This document shows positions 4,237 through 60,968 of a stretch of DNA of 64,000 bases, piece by piece. Made by a program: the position numbers and the translations under genes. The DNA is from an uncultured Clostridia bacterium (GTDB lineage: Bacteria > Bacillota > Clostridia > TANB77 > CAG-508), in contig CALXFF010000002.1 of assembly GCA_944387525.1 (NCBI GenBank), positions 8,954 to 72,953 on the forward strand, given 5' to 3'. Numbering within the stretch: the stretch's first letter is position 1; the number at the start of each line of letters is the position of its first letter. Below the pieces are notes generated by a model. It ran no database searches, was not told the origin of the DNA, and saw only the letters and a list, made by a program, of their open reading frames with translations.

Positions 4237-4370
4237 CTCTTCAAAGCAACAATGTGCTTTTCAAAATAATATAGAGAGTTTAACTTAATTAAATTAATCT
4301 CTCTATTATTATATTCAACTAAACTTTTAATGTCAACATCAGGGACATGCGAAAATGCACAAAAAATCCT

Positions 4371-4423
4371 AAAAAGGGACAGACCTTTTATTCTTATTAA
4401 ATAAAAGGTCTGTCCCTTTTTAA
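4371..4423. terminator. Bidirectional Rho-independent terminator (17-bp perfect stem GGGACAGACCTTTTATT / AATAAAAGGTCTGTCCC) flanked by T/A runs
   Basis: A perfect inverted repeat read directly, with TTTTT on both strands. It sits between prfB and lysC and is part of the GGGAC repeat family. Confidence 0.8.
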
Positions 4424-4449
4424 CAAAAATTGTTTAATCTAGCATGTCC

Positions 4450-5545
4450 CTAAAGCTTCAAATATGCTTCCATAAAATCTGTAATATTCCCATCCATAAC
4501 AGATTCCACATTTCCTACTTCATAATTTGTTCTATGATCTTTTACCATAGTATATGGGCAAAATACATATGACCTAATTTGACTTCCCCATGCAATTTCT
4601 TTTTGTTCTCCTTTTAAATCTTCAATTTTTTCTTTTTGTTCTTGCTCTTTCAAATCTAATAATTTTGATTTTAACATTTTCATTGCAGTTTCTCTATTTT
4701 GAATTTGTGAACGCTCTGATTGACAAGCCACAACAGTATTAGTTGGTATATGTGTTATTCTTACAGCTGATGATGTCTTATTTATATGTTGCCCTCCTGC
4801 TCCAGATGCTCTATATGTATCTATTCTCAAATCATCTGGATTTATTTCGATTTCTATATCATCAGTAATTTCAGGCAAAACTTCAACTGATGCAAAAGAT
4901 GTGTGTCTCCTTCCCCCACTGTCAAATGGTGAAATTCTAACTAGTCTATGCACTCCTTTTTCACATTTCATATATCCATATGCATTTTCACCTATTACCT
5001 CGAATGTGACACTTTTTAGTCCTGCTTCTTCACCTTCTAAATAGTCTAATTCTTTTACTTCATAGTCATTTTTTGTTGCCCATCTTGTATACATTCTATA
5101 TAGCATTTCTGCCCAATCTTGTGATTCTGTTCCTCCTGCTCCTGGATGGATTGTCACTATTGCATTATTATTATCATATTTTCCTGAAAATAAAGTTTCT
5201 ATTTCAAATTTTTCAACTTCTTTTTTTACTTTATTTGTTCCTTTTATAATTTCTTTTGCTACTTCTTCATCTGGTTCTATATTTACTAATTCTGTTAATT
5301 CTTTTAAATTCTTTATTTCGTTTTCTATCTCTTGATATTTATTGCTTTTTCTTTTTATACTTTTTATTTTTCCTAAAACTTTTTGTGAATTTTTTTGGTC
5401 ATCCCAAAATTTTGCATCTAGTGTTTGTTTTTCTAATTCTTTTAATTCTTCTTGTAATTTGGCAATGTCAAAGTGACTCACCTAATTCCTTTAGTTTGTT
5501 TTCTAGTTCTTCTAGTATCTTAGCGTTTTCTTCTAATTCAAACAT
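4450..5545 (-). CDS. prfB: Peptide chain release factor 2 with programmed +1 ribosomal frameshift
   Basis: GGQ motif (SGAGGQHINKTSS). The frame-0 ORF starts at ATG ~5545 (RBS AGGAGAG) and reads MFELEENAKILEELENKLKELGESL then CTT-TGA-C at ~5468-5470. The +1 frame continues DIAKLQEEL.... The shift site is preceded by the SD-like AGGAATTAGGTGAG. The ORF track only shows the post-shift frame (4450..5481). Confidence 0.9.
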
Positions 5546-5607
5546 TTTATCACTCTCCTAACTTGCTTTATTTTAACATAGATTTATATTGATTTCAATT
5601 TTAATTG

Positions 5608-6144
5608 TTACAAATTATCACCCATGTTATATAATTTGCTTAAATTCCGTTTATTTATAATAATTTCCTGTTTAATTTCTTTTATAAATTCAGGAAGATT
5701 TGTGTATGTAGCAACAATTCCTCTATTTGACAAAGCAATAACATTTTTAGCTTTTTCAAGTATCTCACGTTGTATTATTTTAGAAACCTTTATTTCTTGT
5801 CCTTTTCGTAGATATTCCTCTTGAACATATAGCTCAGTTGTAGGGAATATGTTTTGAATTAAGAAAACTCCTTTAATTCCTGCAATATTATTAAAGAATA
5901 CAAAATTGTTAGGCTCTTTATTTATTTTTTGCTTTTTATTATTATATATCTTAAAATATTTGTCGTACTGTTTTGACATTGGAACAAACCACAATAAATC
6001 CTTATTTTTATTGTCTTTAAAACAAAAATATGTAGGTCGTTTCGTTCCTTTTTCTATTTTATTCTCCATTAAATGATATTTTTGTCCATATTTCTCTAAA
6101 AATTCATCCTTTATAAAATATAATCTTCCTTCTTTTATTTTCAT
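5608..6144 (-). CDS. Candidate type III toxin, ToxN/AbiQ-like endoribonuclease (178 aa)
   Basis: Size and motif layout resemble ToxN/AbiQ: N-terminal LYFIKDEFLEKY, RPTYFCF, and LLWFVPMSKQ in the register of YFAPLSSPK. AGGAG RBS with a 6-nt spacer. It lies immediately downstream of the tandem repeat array and a weak terminator. It is an insert between secA and prfB. Confidence 0.5.
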   Translation of the reverse strand: MKIKEGRLYFIKDEFLEKYGQKYHLMENKIEKGTKRPTYFCFKDNKNKDLLWFVPMSKQYDKYFKIYNNKKQKINKEPNNFVFFNNIAGIKGVFLIQNIFPTTELYVQEEYLRKGQEIKVSKIIQREILEKAKNVIALSNRGIVATYTNLPEFIKEIKQEIIINKRNLSKLYNMGDNL

Positions 6145-6154
6145 TGCATACTCC

Positions 6155-6183
6155 TAAAAAAGAGGAGACTTCAAGCCTCCCCT
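6155..6183 (-). terminator. Weak terminator-like hairpin (GGAGGCT-TGAAGT-CTCC + T6) between the repeat array and the toxin ORF
   Basis: Minus-strand reading is GGGGAGGCTTGAAGTCTCCTCTTTTTT. This is analogous to the ToxI-ToxN intergenic attenuating terminator. Confidence 0.45.
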
Positions 6184-6189
6184 ACTATT

Positions 6190-6298
6190 ATATTTTTTCA
6201 CCGGTGCATTTATCTCATCGCCAACCGGGTGGCAGCTTATATCGTTTCACCAGTATATTTATCTCATCGCCGACTGGGCGGCAGCTTATATTTTTACA
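6190..6298 (-). ncRNA. Candidate type III antitoxin RNA: 2 (to ~2.2) tandem 49-nt direct repeats
   Basis: R1 (6196-6244) is tttcaccggtgcatttatctcatcgccaaccgggtggcagcttatatcg. R2 (6245-6293) is tttcaccagtatatttatctcatcgccgactgggcggcagcttatattt. About 88% identical. The internal stem GCCA..TGGC in R1 becomes GCCG..CGGC in R2, a compensatory change. Confidence 0.5.
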
Positions 6299-6326
6299 GA
6301 TTTTACTCTGTTCATTTAGTATATTC

Positions 6327-6355
6327 ATTGTAACATATTTTTATGTGGTTTTCAA
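6327..6355 (-). promoter_or_regulatory. Near-consensus sigma-A promoter driving the repeat array (-35 TTGAAA, 17-nt spacer, -10 TACAAT)
   Basis: Minus strand reads aatacTTGAAAaccacataaaaatatgtTACAATgaata. It sits ~14 nt after the secA stop. Confidence 0.6.
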
Positions 6356-6368
6356 GTATTTTTTTAAA

Positions 6369-9125
6369 TTATGCGTTCTTTCCATGGCAATTCTTATACT
6401 TTTTACCCGAACCACATGGGCAAGGATCATTTCTACCAATCTTAGGACCTTCATTACGAATAGTTCTATCAACATCAGTACCAATCTTAGCCCCACCATC
6501 GACACTATGGATAGCCTCTAATGCTGCACCTGTAATCTTAACAGTCTCTTGTCTCTTTGTCTCGCCTTGTTGTCTAATATGCATCAAAATCTTAGTTACA
6601 TCATATTTGATATCATTAATCATCTCATCAAACATATCAAAACCTTCAAGTCTGTATTGAACAACAGGATCTTTTTGACCATAAGCACGTAAACCAATAC
6701 CATTTTTTAATTCATCCATGCTGTCAATATGATTCATCCATTTTTCATCAACAACTTTAAGCATAACAACTCTTTCAAGCTCTCTCATTTCGTCTGAACC
6801 AATATCTTGTTCCTTTTGGTCATATATTTCCAAAGCTCTTTTTCTTAATTCATCTGAAATTACCTGTGGATTAGTTTTGTTTTCTTTTACGAAGTCTGAC
6901 ATATCAATTCCAAATACATTTAAAATTTCTGTATTTAAAGACTCTACATTTACTTCTGATGTTTCACCTTCTATAAACATATTTGATATGTTTTCTGCAA
7001 CAAAATCAATCATTGCAATTATATTATCATGGATATTTTCTCCATCAAGAACTTCTCTTCTTTGTTTATAAATAATTTCTCTTTGAGCATTCATTACATC
7101 ATCATATTTTAATACATTTTTACGAATACTGAAGTTTCTACCTTCTACTTTTTTCTGTGCATTTTCTACTGCGTTTGAGATAATTCTTGAATCTATTGGC
7201 ATATTTTCGTCTGCACCTAGTGTATTATATACTTTAGTTATCGCATCTCCACCAAAGATTTTCATTAAGTCATCATCTAATCCAATATAGAATTTAGATT
7301 CTCCTATATCTCCTTGACGTCCAGCACGTCCACGTAACTGGTTATCAATTCTTCTAGATTCATGTCTTTCTGTTCCTATGATCTTTAGTCCACCAGCTTC
7401 AATTACTTTTTCTTTTTCTTCTTTTATTTGCTCATCAAATTTATTTACTAACTCTTTAAATTGCTCTCTTGCTTTTAAAATGTCTTGGTCATCTGTTTCA
7501 TAATATGTGTCTGCTGCTTCAATTAATTCAGCTGGAACTTTATTTTTTCTCATAGCTTCTTTTGCTAAATATTCACTATTTCCACCAAGCATAATGTCAG
7601 TACCACGTCCTGCCATGTTTGTTGCAATTGTTACTGCACCATATTTTCCTGCTTGTGCAATTATTTCAGCTTCTTTTTCATGATATTTAGCATTTAATAC
7701 TTCATGCTTAATTCCTTCTTGTTTTAATAATCCACTTAATTTTTCAGATTTTTCGATTGATACTGTACCAACCAAAACTGGTTGACCTTTTTTATGACTT
7801 TCTTTTATGCTTTCTACAATTGCCCTATATTTTGCATTTTCATTTTTGTATATAACATCATTTTCATCTTTACGAATCATTGGTTTATTTGTTGGTATTT
7901 CAACAACATCTAAATTGTAAATCTCTTCGAATTCTGCAGCTTCTGTCATAGCAGTACCTGTCATACCTGATAATTTATCATACATTCTAAAGAAGTTTTG
8001 GAATGTGATTGTTGCTAAAGTTTTTGACTCATCAGCTATCTTCACATGTTCTTTTGCTTCGATTGCTTGATGTAATCCATTATTATATCTTCTTCCATAC
8101 ATAATACGTCCTGTAAATTCATCAACAATTAAAACTTCGCCATCTTTTACGATATAATCAATATCTTTTTTCATAACACCATGCGCACGTAATGCTTGGT
8201 TTACATGGTGAACTAATGTAGAGTTTTCTAAGTCATTGAAGTTTTCTAATCCAAATGCTTCTTCTGCTTTTTTAATACCTTTTTGTGTTAATGATGCAGA
8301 TTTTGCTTTTAAGTCTACAATGTAATCATATTTTTCATTATCTTCTTGTTGATCAAAATCTTTTACATCTTCTTCAACAATAACTTTAGGTGTTAATCTA
8401 CGTACAAAGTTATCTGCTTTTTTGTATAAATCTGATGACTCATTTGCTCTACCTGAAATTATAAGTGGAGTACGAGCTTCATCAATTAAAATACTATCAA
8501 TCTCATCGACGATTGCATAATGTAATCCCCTTTGAACTAATTGATTTTTATATATAACCATATTATCTCTTAGATAATCAAATCCAAATTCATTATTTGT
8601 ACCATATGTTACATCTGCATTATATGCTTCTTGTTTTGCCTTAGGCTCCATTCCTGCAATTACTAAGCCAACTGATAGCCCTAAGAATTTATATAATTTT
8701 CCCATCCATTCACTATCTCTTTTTGCTAAGTAATCATTTACTGTAATTACATGAACTCCTTTTCCTTCTAGTGCATTTAAATATACTGGAAGTGTTGCAA
8801 CTAAAGTTTTTCCCTCACCAGTTTTCATTTCTGCAATTCTTCCTTGGTGTAAAATGATACCGCCTATTAATTGTACATCAAAATGTCTCATTCCTAAAAC
8901 TCTTTTTGATGCTTCTCTAACAACTGCAAATGCTTCTGGTAATATGTCATCTAATGTTTTTCCATTTTTTAATTGCTCTTTGAAGTATTCTGTTTTTCCT
9001 CTTAATTCCTTATCACTTAATTTTGACATTTCGTCTTCTAAGCCATTAATTTTTTGTACTATTGGCATTACTCTTTTAACTTCTTTTTGACTGTAAGTTT
9101 TGAAAATTTTTCTTATTATGCTCAT
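6369..9125 (-). CDS. secA: Preprotein translocase ATPase SecA
   Basis: 918 aa. DEAD-like motor motifs and a C-terminal zinc finger [14 protein letters not shown]. Confidence 0.95.
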
Positions 9126-9307
9126 TTCGAATTGATTCCTCCTAAGTTTATATTTTTACTTTGTTACTATATCACTAAAATATTAATTTAGCAAGTAGTT
9201 TGAACAAAAACTTTTATTATAATGTTCTTATTTTTTACTTTACCTCATATTATTTACTATAATTCACAAAACTTAGAAAATTTAATTGCATAACTGGAGG
9301 TTACTTT

Positions 9308-9856: not shown

Positions 9857-9878
9857 AAGTTGTAAAAAGAGATATTAT

Positions 9879-11150
9879 TTATATCTCTTCTAAAACTCCT
9901 ATATCTTTTTCTGCATCTTTTAAAATTAATTCCTCTACTTGTTTAATTATTTTATCTGTTACACTTTGTGATGAAACATTAATTCTAGCAACAACATTTT
10001 GATATTCTGGTAACATTACTTCATCATGTTCAGAAATACTTTCTGAAGCTTTACATAGATTTAATCCAGTTCTTTTTGCACAAATTATTCCTCTTAAAAT
10101 CGCACCTTCAATATCACAACAATTTTCTAATCTATATGATTTAGAGTTTAAATAACTTTCATATTCTTCACCTGATGAATGTAATAAATCTATTGCATGG
10201 GAATATAATTTGTGTCCAGCATAATTTATTGGATTTACAAAATCAAATTTACTGGTGTCAAATCTGTTAATTCCTTCTTTCTTTCCAACACTCACTTTAT
10301 AATAATTTCTCCAATTATATTGCACTGCTCCAGATGCAACTACATTTATTCCGCTTTTTGATAACGTTTCTTTTAGTTCTTGCATTGTATCTCCTGTCCC
10401 CACATTATCATCCAATAATATCACCTTTGAATTATTATTAAAAATTCTTTGATTAGACACTAATTGCTTTGGAGACTCTGCATCTACAATCCTAGAAGAT
10501 TCACTTATATATTTACTCTTAAAAATATTTGTATATTCAACACCATACATTTCTTTTAGAAATGGTCCAATATAAATAGAGCCATATCCCGGTGTTAATA
10601 CTTCTATATTACTTAATTCTTTATTATCTAAATCTAATGCTTTACTAAAAATGTATAAAACTGCCTTGTTATCCATTTCAATTGCACGTTTCTGACAATT
10701 TTCATCACTTTGTGGCAATACTAATTTAGGATTTACACTTATTAAGCCATTATTTGCTAACAATACTAAAATATTTTTTGTATCTTCTTCCATACATTTT
10801 CTTGCCATATCCATTTGTATTCTAGAGTTTTCATTCTGCCCACTTAAAATATATTCCTCAAACTTTTTAAAATATGACCTCGCGGAACAATTTAGCATGT
10901 TTTCTAATATTACAAAATTTCTTTTTCCATATTCTCTAGTTAATAGCCTTTTTAATTCTTCTCTTTCATTTGATAACTCTGATAATGATTTTACATTATA
11001 ATATTCTTTTGACCTTGAAAAATATTCGGTTTGTTCTGTTTCAGCATTTGTTTTTTGAATTTTTGTTACATATTTTTCAATTCCTTTTACATCTCTTAAT
11101 TTTATAATCCCTAATATATCGAAATCTGTTAGTTTTAGTGGTTCACTCAT
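9879..11150 (-). CDS. Phosphoribosyltransferase-domain protein of unknown substrate (423 aa, with N- and C-terminal extensions)
   Basis: PRPP-binding motif KVILLDDNVGTGDTM. Last gene of a three-gene minus-strand operon. Confidence 0.55.
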   Translation of the reverse strand: MSEPLKLTDFDILGIIKLRDVKGIEKYVTKIQKTNAETEQTEYFSRSKEYYNVKSLSELSNEREELKRLLTREYGKRNFVILENMLNCSARSYFKKFEEYILSGQNENSRIQMDMARKCMEEDTKNILVLLANNGLISVNPKLVLPQSDENCQKRAIEMDNKAVLYIFSKALDLDNKELSNIEVLTPGYGSIYIGPFLKEMYGVEYTNIFKSKYISESSRIVDAESPKQLVSNQRIFNNNSKVILLDDNVGTGDTMQELKETLSKSGINVVASGAVQYNWRNYYKVSVGKKEGINRFDTSKFDFVNPINYAGHKLYSHAIDLLHSSGEEYESYLNSKSYRLENCCDIEGAILRGIICAKRTGLNLCKASESISEHDEVMLPEYQNVVARINVSSQSVTDKIIKQVEELILKDAEKDIGVLEEI

Positions 11151-11156
11151 AAGAAA

Positions 11157-11768
11157 CTATCCTTCCTTTAAAAAATCTTTTAAACAATTTAATTCTTTTT
11201 CAAATTCATACCTTGTAAATGTAGTTTGACTTTTTTCTGTTTCTCCCATTACATGAATAATGTCTCTATCACATATTTTTAATGCATTTCTATACAACGG
11301 ATTTTGTATAGCTGATATATATAGTTCGTCTACCATATCATCATATTCTTGACTATATCTATCTATTTCTTTTCCTTGCCAGTAAACTATTCCTGTCTGT
11401 TTCCAGTCATAATCAGTCGCAGCTTTAATATGATTTGAATCTAAACCACTATATAAAAAAACAAAATCTTGCAATTCTTTATCTTTGAATTTAATTCCTT
11501 GAAAGAAATTCTCTATACAATGAAGGTGTTTTCCTTTAAAATCAAATTCGTATGGAAATAAATTTGAAAAAATTTTCGCATAAGGACCTTTTAATTTATA
11601 TCCAACATTAATCCATTTCTCACAATCTCCTAATTCTTTGCCTTCCTCATCTATCAACGCAATTCCATCACAATATTGAATTCCATCAATAATTTCAATT
11701 TCTTTTTGATTGAACTCATAATTTTCTTTGAATTTTTTAAATTTTTTTAATTCCTCTTCAATGCTCAT
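11157..11768 (-). CDS. NADAR (YbiA/DUF1768) domain protein
   Basis: Motif FSNLFPYEFDFKGKHLHCIENFFQGIKF matches the NADAR signature LSNFYP..F..DG..Y.S.E..FQ..KF. Confidence 0.55.
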   Translation of the reverse strand: MSIEEELKKFKKFKENYEFNQKEIEIIDGIQYCDGIALIDEEGKELGDCEKWINVGYKLKGPYAKIFSNLFPYEFDFKGKHLHCIENFFQGIKFKDKELQDFVFLYSGLDSNHIKAATDYDWKQTGIVYWQGKEIDRYSQEYDDMVDELYISAIQNPLYRNALKICDRDIIHVMGETEKSQTTFTRYEFEKELNCLKDFLKEG

Positions 11769-22154: not shown

Positions 22155-22306
22155 GTGGTCACTTTGGGGACAGGTTCGGACTGACCATTTTTGGTTAGTT
22201 TAGGGACGCCACTTTATTAAAACGACTTTTATCCATTATTTAATTTTTGAGGTCCGTCCCTAAATCCCTGATTTTAGGGATTTTTAGGACCGTCCCCTAG
22301 TTCCCT
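22155..22306. repeat. GGGAC-family intergenic repeat, modules 1+2 (between hydB and hydA)
   Basis: Module 1 is tggtcactttggggacaggttcggactgaccatttttggttagtttagggacgccac. Module 2 is aggtccgtccctaaatccctgattttagggatttttaggaccgtcccctagttccct, a nested palindrome. The hydB stop codon lies inside module 2. Confidence 0.8.
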
Positions 22307-24177
22307 ATTGCATGGAATGGGCAACTTGCTATACATGTACCACACTTGATACATTTTTCTTGATTTATTATTCTTTTATCTCTTCCTGCTCCATCAATAG
22401 CATTTACTGGGCAATGTTTTTGACATAAGCCACAACCTTTACATTTTTCTTGGTCAATTGTTATTTTTGCCATTGCTTTACATTCTAATGTTTTACATTC
22501 TTTTTGAATAGCATGTTGTCTAAATTCTTCTCTAAAGTATTTTAATGTACTTACTACTGGGTTTGGTGCACTTTGACCAAGACCACATAAACTTGCTTTT
22601 TGGATATTTGCTGCCAATTTCTCTAATCTATATATGTCAAATTCTTCTCCTTCACCATTACATAATCTTTCAAGAATTTCTAACATTCTTTTTGTTCCTA
22701 TTCTACATGGTGTACACTTACCACAACTTTCACTTACTGTAAATTCTAAATAGAACTTAGCTAAACATACCATACATTTAGTGTCATCCATAACAATTAG
22801 TCCACCTGAACCCATCATAGAACCAATTGCTTTTAAGGATTCATAATCTATTGGTGTATCTAAATGTTCTTTTGGTATACACCCTCCTGATGGTCCTCCT
22901 GTTTGTGCAGCTTTAAAGTCTCTTCCATTTGGTATTCCTCCACCTATGTCATATACAATTTCTCTTAATGTTGTTCCCATTGGTACTTCTACAAGTCCTA
23001 TATTATTTACATTTCCACCTAATGCAAATACTTTTGTACCTTTTGAATTTGCAGTTCCTATTGATGAATACCAATCAGCACCTTTTAATATTATTTGTGC
23101 TATATTTGCATATGTTTCAACATTGTTTATTAATGTTGGTTTTCCCCATAAACCTGCTACTGCTGGATATGGTGGTTTAACTCTTGGTTGACCTCTTCTT
23201 CCTTCAATAGATTCAAGTAGTGCTGTTTCTTCTCCACATACAAACGCTCCTGCACCTAATCTTATTTCTATATCAAAATTAAAGTTTTTGCCAAAAATAT
23301 TTTTACCTAAAATCCCATAATCTCTTGCTTGGTCTATTGCTATTTGTAATCTTTGAACTGCAATTGGATATTCTGCTCTTACATAAATATATCCTTTATC
23401 TGCACCTATTGCATATGCTGCAATTGCCATAGCTTCTAAAACACTATGTGGATCACCTTCAAGAATACTTCTATCCATAAAAGCTCCCGGGTCACCTTCA
23501 TCAGCATTAGAAACAACATATTTTTGCTTTCCTTCTGAGGCCCTTGTTAGCTCCCACTTCTTACCTGTTGGGAAACCTGCTCCACCTCTACCTCTAAGTC
23601 CAGAATTTTTTATTGTTTCTATTACTTCTTCTGGTGTCATATCACTTAATACTTTCTCTAATGCTAAATATCCATCAAAAGCTATGTATTCATCTATATT
23701 TTCAGGATTTATTACACCACAATTCTTCAATGCAATTCTTTTTTGCTTTTTATAAAAATTCAAATCATCTAATCTATCAACCATCGTGCCATCTATATCT
23801 CTACACAAAAGCCTTTCAACTTTTCCACCCTTTACAATATGTGTATCAATAATCTCTTCGCAATCTTCTGGTGTAACCATTGCATAAAATGTATCTTCTG
23901 GACGTATTATTACAATTGGACCTTTTGCACATAAACCAAAACATCCTGTTTGTATAACACGTACATTATCTATACCTTTTTCTTCTAAAATTTCTCTAAA
24001 TCTTCTTAATATTTCAGGTGATTTAGATGATGTACAACCAGTTCCATGGCAGACTAATATATGTTTTTCTCTAGTATCTGCTTTAGTATTTACTCTTAAA
24101 TCTAATTCTTTTCTTTTTTCTTCTCTTATTTTGTGTATTTCCTTTAAAGATTTCATACTTTCCTCCTTTTGTCGCAT
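22297..24177 (-). CDS. hydB: NADH-binding flavoprotein subunit of bifurcating hydrogenase (NuoF-like, HydB)
   Basis: NuoF-type FMN/NADH and 4Fe-4S motifs, N-terminal thioredoxin-like 2Fe-2S, C-terminal 2x[4Fe-4S] ferredoxin. The true start is probably the second ATG (MKSLKEI, ~24156), which has RBS AAAGGAGGAAAGT. The first ATG lies inside the repeat element. Confidence 0.9.
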   Translation of the reverse strand: MRQKEESMKSLKEIHKIREEKRKELDLRVNTKADTREKHILVCHGTGCTSSKSPEILRRFREILEEKGIDNVRVIQTGCFGLCAKGPIVIIRPEDTFYAMVTPEDCEEIIDTHIVKGGKVERLLCRDIDGTMVDRLDDLNFYKKQKRIALKNCGVINPENIDEYIAFDGYLALEKVLSDMTPEEVIETIKNSGLRGRGGAGFPTGKKWELTRASEGKQKYVVSNADEGDPGAFMDRSILEGDPHSVLEAMAIAAYAIGADKGYIYVRAEYPIAVQRLQIAIDQARDYGILGKNIFGKNFNFDIEIRLGAGAFVCGEETALLESIEGRRGQPRVKPPYPAVAGLWGKPTLINNVETYANIAQIILKGADWYSSIGTANSKGTKVFALGGNVNNIGLVEVPMGTTLREIVYDIGGGIPNGRDFKAAQTGGPSGGCIPKEHLDTPIDYESLKAIGSMMGSGGLIVMDDTKCMVCLAKFYLEFTVSESCGKCTPCRIGTKRMLEILERLCNGEGEEFDIYRLEKLAANIQKASLCGLGQSAPNPVVSTLKYFREEFRQHAIQKECKTLECKAMAKITIDQEKCKGCGLCQKHCPVNAIDGAGRDKRIINQEKCIKCGTCIASCPFHAIGN

Positions 24178-24258
24178 TGGGGACGTTTCTCATGCGACAT
24201 TTTGTCCTTTTGGGGACGTTTCCGTTTGGACATTTTTGTCCATTCTGGGACACATCTA
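24171..24258. repeat. GGGAC-family repeat, module 4-like (gtcgcattggggacgtttctcatgcgac plus GTCC/GGAC mini-hairpins), between hydC and hydB
   Basis: Shares the gtcgcaNtggggacgtttctcatgcgacat arm with the 60898-60968 palindrome. Confidence 0.7.
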
Positions 24259-24780: not shown

Positions 24781-24902
24781 GATTAATATATATTAAATTG
24801 TTGTTTCAATTATATCAAATAGAATTTTTTTATACAACCGATTTTTTACAATTTTTGATTTTTTTCGTTAAATATTGTTACCGAATTAAGTTCTATAACT
24901 GC

Positions 24903-24946
24903 AAGAATAAATAAAACAGCTCCCTCAATATACTAAGTGCTGTTTT
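24903..24946 (-). terminator. Rho-independent terminator after pyrD (AAAACAGC...GCTGTTTT + T-run)
   Basis: Read directly on the minus strand. Confidence 0.6.
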
Positions 24947-24962
24947 ATATTCACTATTTTTT

Positions 24963-25871
24963 CTAATTCATCTGAACTTTACCAATAATATCATTAATAT
25001 CATCAATATTATGCTTTTTCATATACTCTTCAATACCAATAACAGTATTAACACTTGTATATGGGCTAATAAAATTCCCTGCACCAATTGAAATTGCAGT
25101 TGCACCTGCAAGCATAAACTCAATTGCATCATCACCATTTACGATACCACCCATTCCTAAAACCGGAATATTTACAGCTTGTGCAACTTGATATACCATT
25201 CTAACCGCTACTGGTTTTATTGCAGGACCTGAAAGTCCACCTGTATTATTTGCAAGAACTGGTTTTCTTGTATTAATATCAATTTTCATTCCTAACAAAG
25301 TATTAATAAGTGATACTCCATCTGCGCCACCATCTTCTACGCCTTTTGCAATTGATGCTATATCAGTAACATTTGGTGTTAATTTTACAATTAATGGTTT
25401 ATCTAAAACTTTTCTAACTTCACTCGTTACATGTTTTACACCTTCATATGTATTTCCAAAAGCCATACATCCTGCTTTTACATTAGGACAAGATAAATTA
25501 AGTTCTACTCCATCAATATCTAATGTATTTAATATTTTACACAATTCAACATATTCCTCTACTGTACTTCCACACGCATTAACTATAATTGCAGTATCAA
25601 ATTTTCTTAAAAATGGTAAATCATTTTCAGCAAAATATTCAACTCCTGGATTTTGAAGTCCTATACTATTTAACATTCCACTTGCTGTTTCACATACTCT
25701 TGTTGGTTTATTTCCGCTTCTAGGCTTTAATGAAGTACCTTTCGTAATAATTCCACCTAATTTACTCAAATCAAAAAACTCGCTAAATTCTCTTCCATAT
25801 CCAAAAGTCCCTGATGCAACAGTTACCGGATTCTTCATCTCAATTCCAGCTAAATTTATTTTTGTATTCAT
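24963..25871 (-). CDS. pyrD: Dihydroorotate dehydrogenase 1B catalytic subunit
   Basis: Class 1B DHODH motifs, 302 aa, paired with pyrK. Confidence 0.9.
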   Translation of the reverse strand: MNTKINLAGIEMKNPVTVASGTFGYGREFSEFFDLSKLGGIITKGTSLKPRSGNKPTRVCETASGMLNSIGLQNPGVEYFAENDLPFLRKFDTAIIVNACGSTVEEYVELCKILNTLDIDGVELNLSCPNVKAGCMAFGNTYEGVKHVTSEVRKVLDKPLIVKLTPNVTDIASIAKGVEDGGADGVSLINTLLGMKIDINTRKPVLANNTGGLSGPAIKPVAVRMVYQVAQAVNIPVLGMGGIVNGDDAIEFMLAGATAISIGAGNFISPYTSVNTVIGIEEYMKKHNIDDINDIIGKVQMN

Positions 25872-27249: not shown

Positions 27250-27395
27250 TCCTCCTTTTCTATGGTCAGTTTGGGGACAGGTTCGGACTGACCATTTTTG
27301 GTCACTTTAGGGACGCCACTTCTATTTTACTCAAAGGTCCGTCCCCTAATCCCTAAAAGCAGGGATTTTTAGGACCGTCCCCTAAATCCCTCCTA
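27250..27395. repeat. GGGAC-family repeat, modules 1+2 (between pyrF and pyrK)
   Basis: ctatggtcagtttggggacaggttcggactgaccatttttggtcactttagggacgccac ... aggtccgtcccctaatccctaaaagcagggatttttaggaccgtcccctaaatccct. The last 4 codons and stop of pyrF (GGI*) are encoded by the element end. Confidence 0.8.
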
Positions 27396-28321: not shown

Positions 28322-28378
28322 CATGGGGGACAGGTCAAATCGTTTCATTTTGAAACGTTTTGGCACGTCCCTAATAGA
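28322..28378. repeat. GGGAC-family repeat, module 3 (catgggggacaggtcaaatcgtttcattttgaaacgttttggcacgtccctaatag)
   Basis: Overlaps the 3' end of the ArsC-family ORF. The same module occurs at 57998-58048. Confidence 0.75.
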
Positions 28379-28768: not shown

Positions 28769-28824
28769 CTAAATAGGTCTGTCCCTTTTGCGTAATTTTT
28801 AAGCATTTTAGCATGTCCCTAAAT
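28769..28824. repeat. GGGAC-family repeat, module 5 (aggtctgtcccttttg ... tagcatgtccctaaat)
   Basis: Same arrangement as the 4341-4452 element. The pyrC C-terminus (LGTC*) is encoded by gcatgtccctaa. Confidence 0.7.
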
Positions 28825-30247: not shown

Positions 30248-31564
30248 ATGAAAAATTTTTTTATTGTATTAATAATGAAACTTTTAAATATTGCATTAAA
30301 GATAGCAGGTAAACAAGGTGGTAACTTTCTTGGTAAGATAGCATTTGATTGGAATCCTGAAATATTCAAATATTTTAAAATAGATTGTCCAATTATTGCT
30401 GTTACTGCAACAAATGGGAAAACTATGACAAATAATGCTATCGGATATGTTTTTGAAACAGCAGGAAAAAAAGTTATCAGCAACAAAGAAGGAAACAATA
30501 TGGAGACTGGAATTTTATCTACTCTTCTAAAGCATTGTTCTTTAACTGGTAAAATTAAAGCTGATTACTTAGTTTTTGAAGTTGATGAAGGTTATGTACC
30601 TGTTGTATTTAAAGATTTAAAATTAGATACATTAGTTGTTTTAGATTTTTTCCGTGATCAATTAGATAGAAACGGTGAAGTTGAAACATTAATTTTAAAG
30701 ATAAATGAATTTCTTAAAACTTATACTTGTAATTTAGTATTAAATAGTGATGACCCTAATGTTTCAAGACTTGGAAGAGCAAACCCTGATAATGAAAATG
30801 TATATTATTTTAGTGTTGAACCATATAAATATGCAACAAAAGAGATGAAAGAAGCTGGAGAAGGAAAATTTTGCCCATTCTGCAATACTCGTCTCGAATA
30901 TGAATATTATCAGTATTCTCACATAGGAAAATTCGAATGTCCTAATTGTCATTATGGCGATAATGAAATTTACAAACTTGCTCAAAATGTTGACTTAAAA
31001 AATAGAAGTTTTGAAGTTGATGGAATTACATATAAAACTAAATTTAATAGTATTTATAACATATACAATTTTATTGCTGTAATTTCATGTGTTAGCTTAT
31101 ATAACATTGATACAAAAATTGTACAAAAAGCTTTATCGGAATTTGTTTTGAATAATGGTCGTTTAGAAGAAATTGATATAAATGGTATTCCAACTATTAT
31201 TAATTTAGCAAAAAATCCTACTGGAAGTAACGTTAGTTTAAGAATTTTAAATGAAGATGATGATGAAAAAGAATTGCTTTTTGTTTTGAATGATAACTTA
31301 GCTGACGGTCATGATGTTTCTTGGATTTGGGATATTGACTTTTCAAATTTAAATAATGTATCTAGAGTTATAACTTCTGGAACTAGAGCTTATGACATGG
31401 CAATTAGAATTAAAACTTCTGGATTTGATGCAGATAAAATAGAGCCTTACCTAGATTTACATGAAGCAGTTAAAAATTTATATAAAACAAATGTTAAAAA
31501 ATATGTTATTGCAAATTATACTTCTTTGCAACCAACAAGAACTGAAATTTTGAAGTTGAAATGA
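30248..31564 (+). CDS. murT: Lipid II isoglutaminyl synthase subunit MurT (Mur-ligase domain + DUF1727 with Cys4 zinc ribbon)
   Basis: Mur ligase P-loop TATNGKTMT and CPFCNTRL...CPNCHYG. The probable start is ATG 30248 (RBS GAGGAA). The track ORF begins at an upstream TTG. Confidence 0.8.
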   Translation: MKNFFIVLIMKLLNIALKIAGKQGGNFLGKIAFDWNPEIFKYFKIDCPIIAVTATNGKTMTNNAIGYVFETAGKKVISNKEGNNMETGILSTLLKHCSLTGKIKADYLVFEVDEGYVPVVFKDLKLDTLVVLDFFRDQLDRNGEVETLILKINEFLKTYTCNLVLNSDDPNVSRLGRANPDNENVYYFSVEPYKYATKEMKEAGEGKFCPFCNTRLEYEYYQYSHIGKFECPNCHYGDNEIYKLAQNVDLKNRSFEVDGITYKTKFNSIYNIYNFIAVISCVSLYNIDTKIVQKALSEFVLNNGRLEEIDINGIPTIINLAKNPTGSNVSLRILNEDDDEKELLFVLNDNLADGHDVSWIWDIDFSNLNNVSRVITSGTRAYDMAIRIKTSGFDADKIEPYLDLHEAVKNLYKTNVKKYVIANYTSLQPTRTEILKLK

Positions 31565-31592
31565 TGATTTTGGGACGGAGAAAAAATCATCC
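31561..31592 (+). terminator. Hairpin GATGATTTT-gggacggagaa-AAAATCATC after murT (GGGACGG motif in the loop)
   Basis: 9-bp stem read directly. The T-run is weak. Confidence 0.35.
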
Positions 31593-32478: not shown

Positions 32479-32498
32479 TGTTTTATTCCCGTTACTAA

Positions 32499-32556
32499 GT
32501 GCCGTCCCTAAACTGACCAAAAATGGTCACTCCGAACCTGTCCCCAAACTGACCAT
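32499..32556. repeat. GGGAC-family repeat, module 1 (reverse orientation), abutting the nrdD stop
   Basis: gtgccgtccctaaactgaccaaaaatggtcactccgaacctgtccccaaactgaccat. The nrdD TGA overlaps the element end. Confidence 0.8.
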
Positions 32557-36182: not shown

Positions 36183-36382
36183 TCTTCCTCCTTTCTAAAT
36201 TTATTTGCATAAGATTGACTATGGACATATAATATCATTATAAAATAGAACTTTCAAATTAATTTTTTCTTGTTAGTGTCATATCAGCTATCAAAACCTA
36301 TCATTATCTTTTAAAAGCTCATTTAATCAAACTTTTTCATAAAATTTTACTTTTTAGTTTTTTGTTGTTTAATTTGTAATAA

Positions 36383-36442
36383 GTGGCGTCCCTAAAGTGA
36401 CCAAAAATGGTCAGTCCAAACCTGTCCCCAAACTAACCAAAC
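36383..36442. repeat. GGGAC-family repeat, module 1 (reverse orientation) just downstream of the argS stop
   Basis: gtggcgtccctaaagtgaccaaaaatggtcagtccaaacctgtccccaaactaaccaa. Confidence 0.8.
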
Positions 36443-48728: not shown

Positions 48729-48790
48729 TCAAGGTCCGTCCCTAAGTCCCTGTTTTCAGGGATTTAGAGGACCGTCCCCTTAATCCCTCT
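48729..48790. repeat. GGGAC-family repeat, module 2 (aggtccgtccctaagtccctgttttcagggatttagaggaccgtccccttaatccctc) abutting the infB stop
   Basis: Nested palindrome, read directly. Confidence 0.8.
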
Positions 48791-53499: not shown

Positions 53500-53596
53500 T
53501 TTCCTACCATTCCTTTCTTCTTTACTAAATTTATTTTAGTTACAATTATATTTTCTTAATTTATTAGGATATTATATTAAATAATTGTAACAATAT

Positions 53597-54046: not shown

Positions 54047-54206
54047 TGTGTTCTCCTTTCTTTGTTTTGGTTTTAAACTGACTGAAGAGTGGGATTTGTT
54101 CCCACTCTTCTAGTCTCTTCATGTTCTTTAATATTATACCCAATTTTTGGCATAAATGCAAGTATTTTTGAAAATTTGTTTAATATTTTCGTAAATATTT
54201 ATCTTT

Positions 54207-55475: not shown

Positions 55476-55637
55476 TTTCTACCTCTCTTTTATTTTTTCG
55501 TTTATTTAATATTATTATGCTACCTTTTCTATTATACTATTATTGTTAAAATTTTGCAATAATTTTGCGTGATTTTTCTTAATTTTTGCGTGATTTTTTT
55601 AAGTTTTTCTTTTTGTTATGTATTAAATTTTTTAAAA

Positions 55638-56381: not shown

Positions 56382-56384
56382 ATT

Positions 56385-57951: not shown

Positions 57952-57997
57952 TTTCTTACATTCCTCTCATGTTTTTATCTTTCGATTGTCATTTTAT

Positions 57998-58048
57998 CAT
58001 TTCAATGGGAACGTGTCAAATGAAAGATTTGGCACGTCCCTAACAGCT
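57998..58048. repeat. GGGAC-family repeat, module 3 (aatgggaacgtgtcaaatgaaagatttggcacgtccctaacag) overlapping the HK stop codon
   Basis: Same module as 28322-28378. The HK TAG lies in cctaa. Confidence 0.75.
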
Positions 58049-60061
58049 CCATTCCATCACAACTTTAAATAAATCACCATCTATAACAATATCAAATGTT
58101 CCTTTTTGTAGTTCAGTTAGACTTTTTGCAATAGATAAACCTAATCCGCTTCCTTCAGTATATCTTGATTTATCGCCTCTAACAAATCTTTGCATTAATT
58201 CGTCACTACTAATATTTAGTCTGTCTTTAGAAATATTTTTTATACTAATATTAACTTTTTTATTTGTCTTTTTCACATCAATATATACTCTTGAATTTTC
58301 TTGTGCATATTTACTAATATTACTAAATAGGTTTTCCATAATCCTAAACATATATCTATTATCAGCATCTATTCTTACATCTTCCTTTGGCATATCTGTT
58401 TCTATTTGAAGATTTCTACTTTCAAGTCTATCTTTAAATTCTCCAATTGTTTGATTTATTAATTCTTTGATATTTATGCTTTCAATGTTCAATTTAACAT
58501 TTCCAGAAGATGCTTTTGACGCTTCAACTAAATCTTCTGTTAATTTTTTAAGTCTTTGTGATTTAACATCTAAAATATCTATATATTCTTTAATTTTTTC
58601 ATCTTTTATATCTTCTTTTTTCAATAAATCTACATAGTTTATTATAGATGTTAATGGTGTTTTTATATCATGTGATACATTTGTGATTAATTCTGTTTTT
58701 AGTCTTTCTGCCTTCAAATTTTCTTCAATTGCGTTTTTAAATCCTCCTGCTATATCATTGATATATATTGCCATTTCTTTTAAAGCTCCTTCAAGTTCTT
58801 GTTCGTTTATGTGAACATTGGTATCCCCGTCGTAGATTTTTTTTAAAGTTTCTTTAAGCATTTCTTCTTGCCTTACATATTTTCTTAATTGATAATATGC
58901 CCATATCCAGAAAGCTATTAAGATTAGTATTGCTATTCCTGTTACAAACATACTTAGAAGTATTGTTGTTATTAACACAAATCCCCAATAAAGCCAGAAT
59001 ATCTTTTTAGTGTTATCTGTTTTGTTTTTAAATTCGTCTATATATTTTTTTATCTTATTTTTAAACCATCTTAATATTTTATATGTTAAAAAGCTTCTCC
59101 AAAATTGTTTTGCTTTTATTCTTTTTATTGTTGTGATTGTTAATCCTGCTGTCATTACATAACAAATTATATATGAAATTATTAGTATTGTTACAAATAT
59201 ATAGTTAAAACTATCTGTTACACTATTTACTGCTATTGCCCAGAACATTGGTATTATGCAGCAAAATAGTAAAAATACTAATTCATATGGAAGTTCGTCT
59301 ATAAAGTCTAATGTAATTCCTTCTTTTCCTTTTTTGTGTCCAATTGCCCATAATAGATATATTCCTATTATTGTTAATAATATTAAACTGATTGATAATG
59401 CAAATACCGGTAATTTTTGATTTGAAGTAACAAATTGATATATGTCTTGTGTGGTTACAAAATCAAATGATTGCTCTGTTCTTGCTTGATTATATGATGT
59501 GTATATATTATAATCTTTTAAAGTTTTTGATGTTTCATCTATTAAGTCTGGAGTATCATTCATTTCATGATAATATGTGTAATCATATTTCATATTATCT
59601 TGGTTCATATAATTTATGTCTGTTTGTATCTGTCCTTCTACCATGTTCCAATAATATGGATTTGAACTGTTTTCATTCATAGTTTGTTGATAGTCATTAC
59701 TTTTTATGTTTGTATACATGTTTCCTGTTTCTTTATCTATTATTATATAATTTATACAAATTTCAGAGTCGGAATAGTAGTCCTCTGAATAATAATATTT
59801 TTGTCCTTTTGAATCTTCTAATTGTATGTATTGCCCTGTTTCTTCACTTCTTTCGGCTTTTCCAACTTTATCTAACACAGCGTAAAAATATTTATCTGCA
59901 AACCATTGGCTTTGCTTATATTCTGTTTGTGTATTTCCATCTCTTTGATATTCATTTAAATATGATATATGAACAATGCTAAGAAATAATATTGCAGCTA
60001 ATATCGGAATTAATATATAGCATAATATTTTTAAAATAGATGATTGTCTTAATTTCTCCAT
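58040..60061 (-). CDS. Sensor histidine kinase (multi-TM, large N-terminal sensory region, HisKA + HATPase_c)
   Basis: H-box LITNVSHDIKTPLTSI. G2 box GSGLGLSIAKSL. Confidence 0.85.
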   Translation of the reverse strand: MEKLRQSSILKILCYILIPILAAILFLSIVHISYLNEYQRDGNTQTEYKQSQWFADKYFYAVLDKVGKAERSEETGQYIQLEDSKGQKYYYSEDYYSDSEICINYIIIDKETGNMYTNIKSNDYQQTMNENSSNPYYWNMVEGQIQTDINYMNQDNMKYDYTYYHEMNDTPDLIDETSKTLKDYNIYTSYNQARTEQSFDFVTTQDIYQFVTSNQKLPVFALSISLILLTIIGIYLLWAIGHKKGKEGITLDFIDELPYELVFLLFCCIIPMFWAIAVNSVTDSFNYIFVTILIISYIICYVMTAGLTITTIKRIKAKQFWRSFLTYKILRWFKNKIKKYIDEFKNKTDNTKKIFWLYWGFVLITTILLSMFVTGIAILILIAFWIWAYYQLRKYVRQEEMLKETLKKIYDGDTNVHINEQELEGALKEMAIYINDIAGGFKNAIEENLKAERLKTELITNVSHDIKTPLTSIINYVDLLKKEDIKDEKIKEYIDILDVKSQRLKKLTEDLVEASKASSGNVKLNIESINIKELINQTIGEFKDRLESRNLQIETDMPKEDVRIDADNRYMFRIMENLFSNISKYAQENSRVYIDVKKTNKKVNISIKNISKDRLNISSDELMQRFVRGDKSRYTEGSGLGLSIAKSLTELQKGTFDIVIDGDLFKVVMEWSC

Positions 60062-60097
60062 TTTTGCTTCATTCCTTTCTTTCTAATTTTATTGTAA

Positions 60098-60799
60098 TTA
60101 TTCCCCAACGTTTTCTATCTTGTAGCCAATCCCCCAAATAACCTTCAAATATCTAGGTTCTTTTGGATTTATCTCAATCTTTTCTCTGATGTGTCTTATA
60201 TGTACTGCTATAATATTTTCTGCTCCATAGCTTTCTTCATTCCAAACATTTTCATATATTTGTGGAATAGAATACACCTTTCCTTTGTTTTTTAATAAGA
60301 ATTTCAATATATTAAACTCTGTTGCTGTTAATTTTACTTCTTTTCCATCTACTGTAACTTTTTTAGTTTCATCATCAAGTATTAATTCTCCTGTTCTATA
60401 TATATGTTTATTATCCTTTTTCTCCATCGCTCCTAGTGATACATAACGTCTTATTTGTGAATTTACTCTTGCAATTAGTTCTAATGGATTAAATGGTTTT
60501 GTTATATAATCATCTGCTCCTTGATTTAATCCTCCTATTTTGTCATAATCTTCAGATTTTGCTGATAAGAGAATTACTGGAATAGATTTATCTTTTCTTA
60601 ATTCTTCTAATGTCGCTAATCCATCTTTTTCTGGCATCATGATGTCTAGAATTATTAGATGTATTTCATTTTCCTTTACTTTTTCTAATGCTTCATTTCC
60701 ATTGTAGGCTTTTATTATGTTATATCCTTCCTTTTTTAAATAGATTTCAATTGCTCCTACTATTTCTCTATCATCATCAACAACTAAAATATTGTACAT
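60098..60799 (-). CDS. OmpR-family response regulator
   Basis: Receiver Asp (LIILDIMMP) and a winged-helix C-terminal domain. Confidence 0.85.
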   Translation of the reverse strand: MYNILVVDDDREIVGAIEIYLKKEGYNIIKAYNGNEALEKVKENEIHLIILDIMMPEKDGLATLEELRKDKSIPVILLSAKSEDYDKIGGLNQGADDYITKPFNPLELIARVNSQIRRYVSLGAMEKKDNKHIYRTGELILDDETKKVTVDGKEVKLTATEFNILKFLLKNKGKVYSIPQIYENVWNEESYGAENIIAVHIRHIREKIEINPKEPRYLKVIWGIGYKIENVGE

Positions 60800-60897
60800 T
60801 TTAATTTTCCCCTTTCAATCTATCTTCATGTTCTAGCAATAGTATACCACAAATATTATGAAGAAAAAATAGAGGAAAAATTAATTTTTCCTTAATG

Positions 60898-60968
60898 TCG
60901 CAATGGGGACGTTTCTCATGCGACATTATATAAAAAAATGTCGCATGAGAAACGTCCCCATTGCGACA
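60898..60968. terminator. 30-bp perfect palindrome (gtcgcaatggggacgtttctcatgcgacat / atgtcgcatgagaaacgtccccattgcgac) with an 11-nt AT loop, directly after the clpX stop; GGGAC-family module 4
   Basis: Read directly, followed by TTTTTT on the plus strand. One arm recurs at 24171. Confidence 0.8.

Follow-up and report, generated by a model that had tools for sequence, protein, structure and literature searches.

Good descriptions of small interspersed repeats exist for a few model bacteria, and uncultured gut Clostridia are almost unstudied in this respect. The replicative unit of the REPINs is an inverted doublet of repetitive extragenic palindromes (REPs) that forms a hairpin (PMC3116915), and some bacterial interspersed mosaic elements (BIMEs) attenuate transcription or stabilise upstream mRNA (PMC3116915, PMC3337134; background of PMC3049150). 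The pneumococcal BOX element (boxA-boxBn-boxC) is co-transcribed with its neighbours and turns over slowly; no mobilising enzyme has been proven for it, and it was judged parasitic (PMC3049150). In Staphylococcus aureus, the 14-bp STAR repeats (consensus T(G/A/T)TGTTG(G/T)GGCCC(C/A)) are spaced at least 40 bp apart, and their loci expand and contract and are conserved by locus and lineage, with function and spread unexplained (PMC3532100). Here, we describe repeats built around a GGGAC box in a 64-kb stretch of bacterial DNA from an uncultured Clostridia bacterium (contig CALXFF010000002.1; the whole stretch is referred to below as the window), which has ~28% GC and carries nearly all of its genes on the (-) strand. 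The GGGAC-box repeats make up a family of small, composite interspersed repeats that is specific to one uncultured Clostridia lineage with ~28% GC, and their folding and position suggest that they probably act as RNA hairpins at gene ends.

GGGAC-box repeats in the window and in related genomes

The window contains 15 copies of GGGGAC/GTCCCC, compared with 3.6 predicted by dinucleotide shuffling (15 or more in 0 of 100 shuffles), and the shorter GGGAC/GTCCC occurs 42 times compared with 22.3 expected (none of the shuffles reached 42). The location of the motif is a stronger signal than its raw count. On a simple longest-open reading frame (ORF) map, in which the intergenic share of the window is 9.9%, intergenic DNA has 29 of the 42 GGGAC sites (20-fold density; Fisher p 5e-20) and 13 of the 15 GGGGAC sites (59-fold density; Fisher p 8e-12). 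All clusters of at least two boxes are intergenic, and the intergenic GGGAC sites of the window all fall in 12 structured loci, or roughly one locus per 5 kb. An initial annotation of this DNA had reported GGGGAC enrichment in structured intergenic elements; the shuffle and Fisher tests show that the enrichment is real, at 12 loci lying where that annotation had placed them, and that its expectation of ~1 GGGGAC per 64 kb was too low.

In the basic unit of the repeats, which is ~33-36 nucleotides (nt) long, a left arm leads into the conserved box TT(G/A)GGGAC(A/G)G, after which come the complementary right arm and a linker rich in T. Elements begin with at least one head hairpin of this form and end in a tail, a shortened unit that has the left arm and a box but no right arm; the tail box, the second of the element, reads TTAGGGAC.... 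The two or three GGGAC boxes of an element are direct repeats spaced by 33-36 nt. We distinguish the types by their arms: TGGTCAGT in type A, AGGGATT in type B, TGTCGCA, TGTCTCA or TGTCC in type C and GATGATT in type F, while types D and E have mainly two boxes, direct in D and inverted in E. In the terms of the initial annotation, A is module M1, B is M2, C is M4, D is M5, E is M3 and F is the loop hairpin at 31561; all of these are present within a dozen bases of the positions it gave. Elements occur singly, tail-to-tail (B in sense followed by A in antisense, at hydB|hydA and pyrF|pyrK) or as near-perfect inverted pairs. The number of units varies, with one to two heads plus a tail in type C, tandem arm duplications, and head-only copies (L025, L031 and L060; L numbers identify the comparison sequences). 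Terminal inverted repeats are found in the C, D and E pairs, and single A, B and D elements have differing ends. The linkers of B are U-rich or A-rich in the same orientation. We considered and rejected a CRISPR array: each locus has only two or three boxes, and the apparent spacers are complementary arms that are repeated between loci.

The stems of type C co-vary. In its alignment, 82% of cells are paired as opposed to 11-51% with slid partners, three pairs have changed on both sides, and the covariation score exceeds that of all 500 shuffles. In M1 heads, the pairing of arm 1 with arm 2 is kept better than the alternative pairing of arm 2 with arm 3 (7.4 vs 6.9 of 8), with weak covariation between position 7 of the first arm and position 2 of the second. 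Read on their own strand, M1 and C heads have a 13-14-bp stem (G.U pairs included), a 5-6-nt loop and 4-7 U; the M1 head is terminator-like by score and the C head has a terminator shape by inspection, and type B, single D and type F elements are without the canonical shape. Part of the G-run is predicted to be paired in the upper stem of A, B and C heads.

To look for copies elsewhere, one genome per species was scanned with an exact 22-nt M1 core pattern. The scan returned 93 M1-core stretches, all of them in nine metagenome-assembled genomes (MAGs) labelled uncultured Clostridia, Bacillota or Clostridium sp., with 9-20 cores in each of seven MAGs and one core in each of two. The DNA retrieved for comparison amounts to ~750 kb and includes every M1 neighbourhood (8 kb) of the nine MAGs; one stretch, L001, is from the same genome as the window (99.99% identity) and was left out. 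Across shared genes, the window is 94-97% identical to two of the nine MAGs. The most intergenic-enriched hexamers in the ~750 kb are derived from the box (CGTCCC 28-fold and GGGGAC 14-fold relative to coding DNA), and every type seen in the window recurs in the related MAGs with its architecture unchanged. Conversely, profile hidden Markov models (HMMs) built from the other genomes only recovered exactly the 12 loci of the window and nothing else (E 6e-22 to 2e-3). Type C heads are also present on seven short low-GC metagenome contigs.

The copies in other genomes and the HMMs uphold the initial proposal of a mosaic family resembling REPs and MITEs (miniature transposable elements with inverted repeats), in the sense that the repeats are multi-copy, multi-genome and modular. 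Paralogous copies, which that proposal allowed might be missing outside the window, exist in the form of the 93 M1-bearing stretches. The family also appears to be unnamed, as had been supposed. Nothing in Rfam matched at the gathering threshold, and in E-value mode Rfam gave solely spurious miRNA-hairpin matches to the long palindromes. Plasmid and phage collections searched by blastn with a B+A composite contained no match, IMG/VR had 0 hits to exact patterns of types A, B and C, and the full-text literature on GGGGAC intergenic or hairpin repeats yielded nothing relevant. Because plasmid, phage and IMG/VR matches are all lacking, a phage or plasmid origin is unsupported.

One conserved sequence in the comparison DNA is probably distinct from the family. 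A ~70-nt non-coding stretch (...CCATGCAAATGCAGGGACGAAATAATTTCCGCGGTACCACC...) at several loci (group 'GAAAT', five copies) contains GGGAC by chance and is probably an unrelated structured RNA gene. In L098, a similar ...TTTCCGCGGTACCACC... adjoins a type C head.

The loci of the window and their placement

The genes at the repeat loci encode HydC/HydB/HydA-type [FeFe] hydrogenase subunits, PyrC, an ArsC/Spx-family protein, PyrF, PyrK, PyrD, MurT and its GatD partner, NrdD, ArgS, IF-2 (infB), a release factor (RF) and a two-component pair, all of which were confirmed. No tRNA or tmRNA genes were found in the window.

Long palindromes lie at the two ends of the series. Between a prfB-like RF gene and an amino-acid-kinase gene, two type D (M5) half-elements form a 114-nt palindrome (4341-4454). 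The first lies at 4341..4386 (+), with boxes at 4342 and 4376, 34 nt apart (nhmmer E 8e-12, as for the E-values below), and the second at 4406..4454 (-), sense to the upstream RF gene (E 8e-8), whose TAG stop falls within the TTTAGGGAC box of this half-element. The inner boxes of the pair, GGGACAGACC/GGTCTGTCCC, make a terminator-like stem with A- and T-runs on its sides, and the RNA of 4338-4455 is predicted to fold at -61.7 kcal/mol (z -12.6). Directly downstream of the palindrome and upstream of the amino-acid-kinase gene is a perfect sigma-70-type sequence, TTGACA-17-TATAAT (12/12), at 4336-4308(-). At the other end, a type C (M4) inverted pair (60895..60968, unstranded; E about 2e-10 per arm) lies between a 438-amino-acid (aa) gene and a response-regulator gene; its two 32-nt head units are perfectly complementary and enclose a 9-nt loop, each unit has a T-run after it on its own strand, and the RNA is predicted to fold at -60.5 kcal/mol (z -16.1).

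The hyd and pyr operons hold composite loci. In the hyd operon, a type A (M1) element at 22156..22214 (+, antisense to the operon; E 5e-21) places its head 23 nt 5' of the start codon of hydA and comprises the head hairpin TGGTCACT/ACTGACCA with loop TTGGGGACAGGTTCGG, a TTTT linker, an arm repeat and the tail box TTTAGGGACGCCAC. Tail-to-tail with it is a type B (M2) element at 22250..22306 (-, sense; E 6e-19), the head of which overlaps the hydB stop. The M4 locus at 24170-24256 holds three boxes: (i) a C head unit at 24170..24202 (+; arms GTCGCAT/ATGCGAC; E 3.5e-11), antisense to the operon and directly upstream of the hydB ribosome-binding site, (ii) a second head unit at 24203..24234 (+; arms TGTCC/GGACA), which is conserved in L071 and L073, and (iii) a tail at 24237..24256 (+) made of the arm repeat TGTCCAT and the box TCTGGGACACATC.

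In the pyr operon, M1 at 27263..27321 (+, antisense; E 6e-22) has its head just upstream of the pyrK ribosome-binding site, and the terminator-like site it contains, 27262-27295(+) (14 pairs, a loop of 6, then TTTTT), faces antisense transcription. It is again tail-to-tail with an M2 element, at 27334..27391 (-, sense; E 2e-19), which has its head at the pyrF stop. In both B+A composites (hydB/hydA and pyrF/pyrK), the predicted fold pairs box with box (z -3.5 and -2.6). Further along is an imperfect inverted pair of type E (M3) at 28322..28376 (unstranded), with box GGGACGTGCC on the (-) strand, box GGGGACAGGTC on the (+) strand, a hairpin in the centre and a predicted RNA fold of -19.6 kcal/mol (z -5.0); the ArsC/Spx-family ORF reads through its first box (...LGTCQNVSK*). 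A single type D element at 28775..28823 (-; E 6e-15), with two direct boxes 34 nt apart, makes up the end of PyrC, both its final residues and its stop codon (...VAYLGTC*), and no stable RNA structure is predicted for it (z -0.2).

The remaining loci are at stop codons or just beyond them. A type F hairpin at 31561..31592 (+), with arms GATGATTTT/AAAATCATC and loop GGGACGGAGAA, is sense, overlaps the murT stop upstream of gatD and is represented by four conserved copies. M1 at 32497..32555 (-, sense; E 2e-20) overlaps the nrdD stop codon and faces the convergent gatD; its predicted fold is an 8 + 6 bp head hairpin followed by UUUUU. The fourth M1, at 36381..36439 (-, sense; E 1.5e-20), begins 11 nt past the argS stop and contains a terminator-like site at 36439-36408(-), after which comes a spacer of ~200 nt with promoter-like sites. 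M2 at 48731..48788 (-, sense; E 2e-17) lies directly past the infB stop and has a flipped, A-rich internal linker, GAAAAC (fold z -3.5). Finally, M3 at 57998..58043 (-; fold z -3.1) has a degenerate second box, GGGAAC; the TAG stop of a histidine-kinase gene falls within its TTAGGGAC box, and a promoter-like TTGACA-17-TGATAAAAT overlaps it (site 58019-57991(-), 11/12 with TG).

Across all of the genomes, elements adjoin a gene with their head side. The median gap from M1 to the nearest gene is 14 nt on the head side and 80 nt on the tail side, and the head of type B overlaps the stop codon. Relative to transcription, type B is mainly sense (24 sense to 5 antisense) and type C mainly antisense (20 antisense to 5 sense); D and E are mostly sense, and A occurs both ways. 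Of 39 antisense M1 heads, 28 have a start codon at a distance of 8-27 nt; of 26 sense M1 heads, 19 stand 0-11 nt past a stop and 23 have at least 42 nt before the next gene. The window follows the same lines: its three sense hairpin-plus-U heads (32497, 36381 and 60936-60968) are all at transcription-unit ends, and its three antisense A/C loci (22156, 24170 and 27263) are all inside the hyd and pyr operons, directly 5' of a ribosome-binding site. Since the biases of B and C are opposite, no single replication-strand-specific insertion mechanism (of the IS200/IS605 type) accounts for them; transcription-related selection would explain the pattern.

These details refine several statements of the initial annotation. 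It correctly listed four M1 copies, with one position (27250) about 12 nt early, and the 30-bp perfect palindrome it saw at 60898 is indeed perfectly complementary, the actual structure being two 32-nt arms with a 9-nt loop. The elements do interrupt the hyd and pyr operons; gatD and nrdD, cited as a further case, are convergent genes and form no operon. Placement immediately after stop codons is not the rule for M1 and M4 inside operons, which sit antisense, just upstream of the next ribosome-binding site. The suggestion of terminator hairpins gains support from the modelling, in which M1 and M4 heads resemble intrinsic terminators and several loci are predicted to fold far better than shuffles.

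Two groups of genes in the window are worth recording. A 183-aa ORF at 25872-26423 (-), between pyrK and pyrD, has no NCBIfam hit and a weak, sub-threshold match to Zn-dependent phospholipase C; it is present in L071 and missing at the junction in L073 (the blastn alignment skips from 4193 to 4165), a pattern that resembles the insertion of an accessory gene into the pyr operon. At 9879-11768 (-), a 203-aa protein with a Phage_30_3 (gp30.3) domain adjoins a 423-aa protein with weak phosphoribosyltransferase-like matches, and the two are unusual company for the surrounding housekeeping genes.

Turnover, conservation and competing explanations

Among genomes with 91-99% identity in the flanks, orthologous spacers vary. 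Only the window carries the 33-nt GTCGCA head at 24170-24202; L071 and L073, in which the site is conserved, are without the unit, and the indel is precise, with TTTTGTC on both sides. This unit is one base different from the units at 60895-60968. A 59-nt M1 present in two species is cleanly missing in a third, with TTTT on both sides, and the M1 3' of argS (36381) is missing in L094, from the closest MAG. The type D element at pyrC is missing in L073, which has a PyrC terminating in ...VVFEN* and a spacer of 11 nt, and an ExoIII protein ends ...VVSLGTGSD* inside an M1. Rearrangement within elements is also seen: a C inverted pair has replaced the inner part of a B element, joined to it immediately past GGGGACG, chimeric heads in L063, L054, L079 and L097 combine arms of two subtypes joined at the loop, and the internal palindrome of B exists in two reverse-complement states, such as GTTTTT and AAAAAC. 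Other filled/empty pairs show replacement or microhomology and no duplication. Because of the precise indels at T-runs, the nesting, the exchange of arms at the loop and the flipping palindromes, we read these comparisons as indicating hairpin-dependent copying of single units, slippage and recombination.

Related rearrangements occur in the comparison DNA. The left arm and first loop bases stand in tandem two to four times before some heads, as (TGGTYAGTT)n before M1 and (TGTCYCATTGG)n before C (L051 ~2430-2480, L063, L079 and L089; L101 ~1470-1520; L100 ~600-620), which suggests slippage at the hairpin. In L023 (~990-1123) and L064 (~395-520), chains of M1 heads in both orientations with TTTT/AAAA linkers resemble BIME-like clusters.

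Conservation was measured on 142 orthologous M1 pairs from different MAGs, with indels scored as mismatches. Outside the searched core, the left arm is 95.9% identical and the linker, third arm and tail box are 93.1% identical, compared with 93.3% for the head-side 100 nt, which are mostly coding, 81.9% for the first 60 nt past the tail and 77.3% for the next 60 nt. Types B and C behave likewise (96.6% and 97.2% vs tail flanks of 84.2% and 80.8%), and sense and antisense M1, taken separately, give the same pattern. Orthologues have site-specific variants in common, and non-orthologous copies are only 81-85% alike, which argues for vertical inheritance rather than homogenisation. Many sites are common to up to seven MAGs, and most insertions are therefore old. 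By these comparisons, the copies are old, vertically inherited and constrained about as strongly as their coding flanks.

With moderate confidence, we favour an explanation that combines a repeat family of this kind with hairpin-dependent reshuffling of its units and retention of copies by selection for hairpins in transcripts. Units would be copied and reshuffled by a hairpin-dependent process at T-runs, and selection would keep the copies for what their hairpins do in the RNA. A and C heads, read on their own strand as a stem and U-tract, would serve as one-way intrinsic terminators after the last gene of a unit; inside operons, these heads would occur in the non-terminating orientation only, immediately 5' of the next ribosome-binding site. 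Types B, D, E and F at stop codons would be non-terminating or weakly terminating hairpins. At these positions, they could shield processed cistrons at the 3' or 5' end or stop antisense transcription, and the hairpins within operons may stabilise or process transcripts or stop antisense transcription as well.

Several observations weigh against selection for transcript hairpins or leave it incomplete. The conservation estimates are biased upward, as both copies of a pair had to match a short pattern, and counts and samples include orthologous redundancy. Strand-specific selection at the RNA level, sought as G.U-tolerant arm variants in sense vs antisense copies, was not detected (p 0.69, 30 independent sites), and the residual spacer differs only modestly between sense and antisense M1 (156 vs 94 nt). 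No simple terminator rule applies to B, because its linkers are U- or A-rich in the same orientation. Hairpin function is insufficient to explain the whole family or the tail boxes, because the single D element is predicted to be unstructured and is nevertheless conserved. That A, B, C and F share a loop sequence needless for stem stability hints at a trans-acting factor. As for the copying process, the T-runs at the two precise indels are the elements' own linkers, no clean fixed-length target-site duplication was found, no protein has a paralogue within any MAG (681 ORFs), and the searches of ~750 kb found no mobilising enzyme. Termination, stabilisation and processing are all functions that we infer from sequence.

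A real but distinctly less probable alternative is that the repeats are purely selfish, non-autonomous DNA of the MITE or REPIN type, mobilised by a transposase in trans, and that their placement reflects the purging of harmful insertions. Multiple near-identical paralogues, presence or absence among genomes that are 91-99% identical, the nested insertion, inverted doublets resembling REPINs and insertions that rewrite gene 3' ends (PyrC and ExoIII) would all be expected of such elements, and pneumococcal BOX, RUP and SPRITE repeats have been read in this way (PMC3049150). However, orthologous copies are conserved like coding flanks and far above the adjacent intergenic DNA in both orientations, and the sites common to up to seven MAGs make most insertions old. 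A mobilising gene was also sought directly. Besides the lack of protein paralogues within MAGs, tblastn and phmmer found no Y1-transposase-like ORF in the window, the 8-kb M1 neighbourhoods of the nine MAGs and the seven metagenome contigs, with an approximate IS200 TnpA sequence as the query; the searches cover ~750 kb centred on M1 neighbourhoods, and a REP-associated tyrosine transposase (RAYT) beside types B-E would lie outside them. None of ten window ORFs of unassigned function gave a DNA-binding or transposase domain. Larger indels at element-bearing spacers hold accessory genes and no transposases, as far as translations read by eye without a family search can tell, and the gene between two inverted M1 copies in L043, L067 and L083 encodes a 105-aa zinc-ribbon (RNHCP-like) protein. 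The sole insertion sequence (IS) seen in the ~750 kb is IS66-like (L085 5017-6748) and has one 425-aa transposase ORF; its perfect 23-nt terminal inverted repeats, GTTACTACTCAGCCCTAAAAACA, and 8-bp target duplication, GAAAAGTT, are both unrelated to the GGGAC repeats, which themselves show no consistent target-site duplication. The MITE comparison made in the initial annotation thus stands for the mosaic character of the repeats, with no typical target-site duplication and no partner transposase demonstrated.

The accessory genes in these spacers differ among species. L071, from the closest MAG, has a 1.5-kb insertion (1507-3047) between hydC and pyrD, which the window lacks (24863-24964); from its translation, we take the 435-aa protein encoded there to be radical-SAM-like. 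A two-gene cassette (143 and 135 aa) lies between argS and a galE-like gene in L018 (2878-3960) and L005 (2522-3348) and not in the window (~38170), and by eye it is presumably a nucleotidyltransferase/HEPN-type toxin-antitoxin pair. The same element-bearing spacers contain different genes from one species to another at L038 2946-4587, L088 798-1652 and L030/L050 ~5900-7340, which we presume from reading the translations to be two unknown ORFs, a Fic-like gene and an AAA-ATPase-like gene; in other species, these spacers hold a type C element alone, and they may be integration hot spots. Separately, L055 (2497-4075) has a cluster of small ORFs in which RYQDDF resembles a YxDD motif and one product may be an accessory protein with a four-helix bundle. 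The cluster looks like part of a reverse-transcriptase system and may belong to a retroelement of the retron or diversity-generating retroelement (DGR) type.

It is unlikely, although it deserves weighing, that the boxes are primarily sites for a DNA- or RNA-binding protein, either a nucleoid or topology factor or an RNA-processing factor, with the paired boxes as the functional part and the hairpins secondary. Gyrase and IHF at BIMEs are examples of such nucleoid and topology factors. A binding site would fit a box and spacing that are common to all types, including the unstructured D, the presentation of the box in the loop of hairpins with differing stems, the conserved tail boxes that have no right arm, and the recombination of arms at the box. 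Yet no candidate protein was identified, a reader acting on RNA alone is hard to square with boxes that face either way relative to transcription, and, as the G-run is predicted to be partly paired in the upper stem of A, B and C, conservation of the box may be structural or due to common descent.

Doubtful to a similar degree is a more specific proposal, in which the loop-displayed GGGAC box is recognised by a trans-acting protein and the host keeps the elements as orientation-dependent insulators. The elements would then close transcription units, keep antisense transcripts from crossing co-oriented operons and set the ends of processed cistrons. The reader may be an RNA- or DNA-binding factor, or else a domesticated nuclease or recombinase that needs no Y1 transposase to copy and reshuffle the 33-36-nt hairpin units at T-runs. 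Were this true, Firmicutes would have an equivalent of the REPIN-RAYT symbiosis that works by a different chemistry. Known recognition motifs were also considered: CsrA-type sites (GGA in loops), PyrR sites, sigma-54 promoters, extracytoplasmic function (ECF) promoters and the K-turn appear to be unlikely candidates, since either their consensus is a poor match or the motif faces both ways relative to transcription.

A genome-wide oriented signal (an uptake sequence, a Chi-like site or an FtsK/SpoIIIE motif) or a restriction-site pattern is very improbable. GGGAC is a type IIS recognition site, neisserial uptake sequences occur as inverted pairs after genes, and a short, over-represented G-rich motif that is often found in inverted pairs after genes recalls such signals. 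Against this, GGGAC is mildly depleted within genes (133 observed vs 180 expected in ~0.6 Mb of coding interior), the box always lies within conserved modules of 30-60 nt, and no single strand is preferred, with 12 (+) and 17 (-) intergenic boxes in the window and opposite biases of B and C. Chance, compositional bias or an assembly artefact, which the metagenomic source of the assembly might suggest, is barely credible given the shuffle and Fisher tests and the presence of the modules in nine independently assembled MAGs and seven metagenome contigs.

Comparison with described repeat families

The GGGAC family is dense, occupies operon junctions and alters the ends of genes. Should the orientation rule hold, with terminating heads at unit ends only, the elements could serve to predict transcription-unit boundaries in MAGs of this clade and would be a clear example of repeats co-opted to shape transcripts. 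The common loop motif offers a probe for a protein that reads or moves the elements. Repeats of this sort also break short-read assemblies and can mislead ORF calling at the 3' ends of genes.

In general organisation, the GGGAC repeats resemble the REP/BIME/REPIN group: they are short, GC-rich relative to the genome, imperfectly palindromic, extragenic and present in many copies, they form direct and inverted mosaics with short linkers, their inverted doublets fold into long hairpins, and they are vertically inherited and long-lived. REP sequences carry a GTAG tetranucleotide at the foot of a conserved stem. The GGGAC repeats share no sequence similarity with REP; here, the conserved part is the box in the loop or upper stem, the stems vary, and there is no GTAG foot. 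Unlike in REPINs, the commonest unit is a head hairpin with a truncated direct repeat, and inverted doublets are found as C, D and E pairs. REP-RAYT systems have a cognate, single-copy RAYT (Y1/HUH transposase) gene with the repeats on its flanks; here, the approximate query revealed no RAYT/Y1 transposase near any M1 copy, and the host is a low-GC Firmicute. With regard to MITEs, no partner IS with matching ends was found in the ~750 kb.

Intrinsic terminators are a close structural match for part of the family, as M1 and C heads are predicted to form a stem, a short loop and a U-run 0-11 nt past stop codons. They differ in that the heads belong to 57-nt multi-copy modules with a second conserved box, and about half of the M1 sites are non-terminating and inside operons. 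The STAR repeats of S. aureus are likewise short, GC-rich direct repeats with regular spacing in the intergenic DNA of a low-GC Firmicute. Their consensus is different, and the GGGAC boxes are spaced by 33-36 nt, are placed in hairpin loops with complementary arms and are commonly inverted.

The pneumococcal BOX elements offer an analogy in a low-GC Firmicute host: they too are composite and modular with variable internal units, which in the GGGAC family are the variable C heads, tandem arms and head-only copies described above, and they too are intergenic, structured, slow to turn over and able to alter gene ends. Sequence and host clade are unrelated, and BOX modules are 45-59 nt long without a motif common to the module types, whereas the GGGAC copies are built around one shared box and are conserved like coding DNA.

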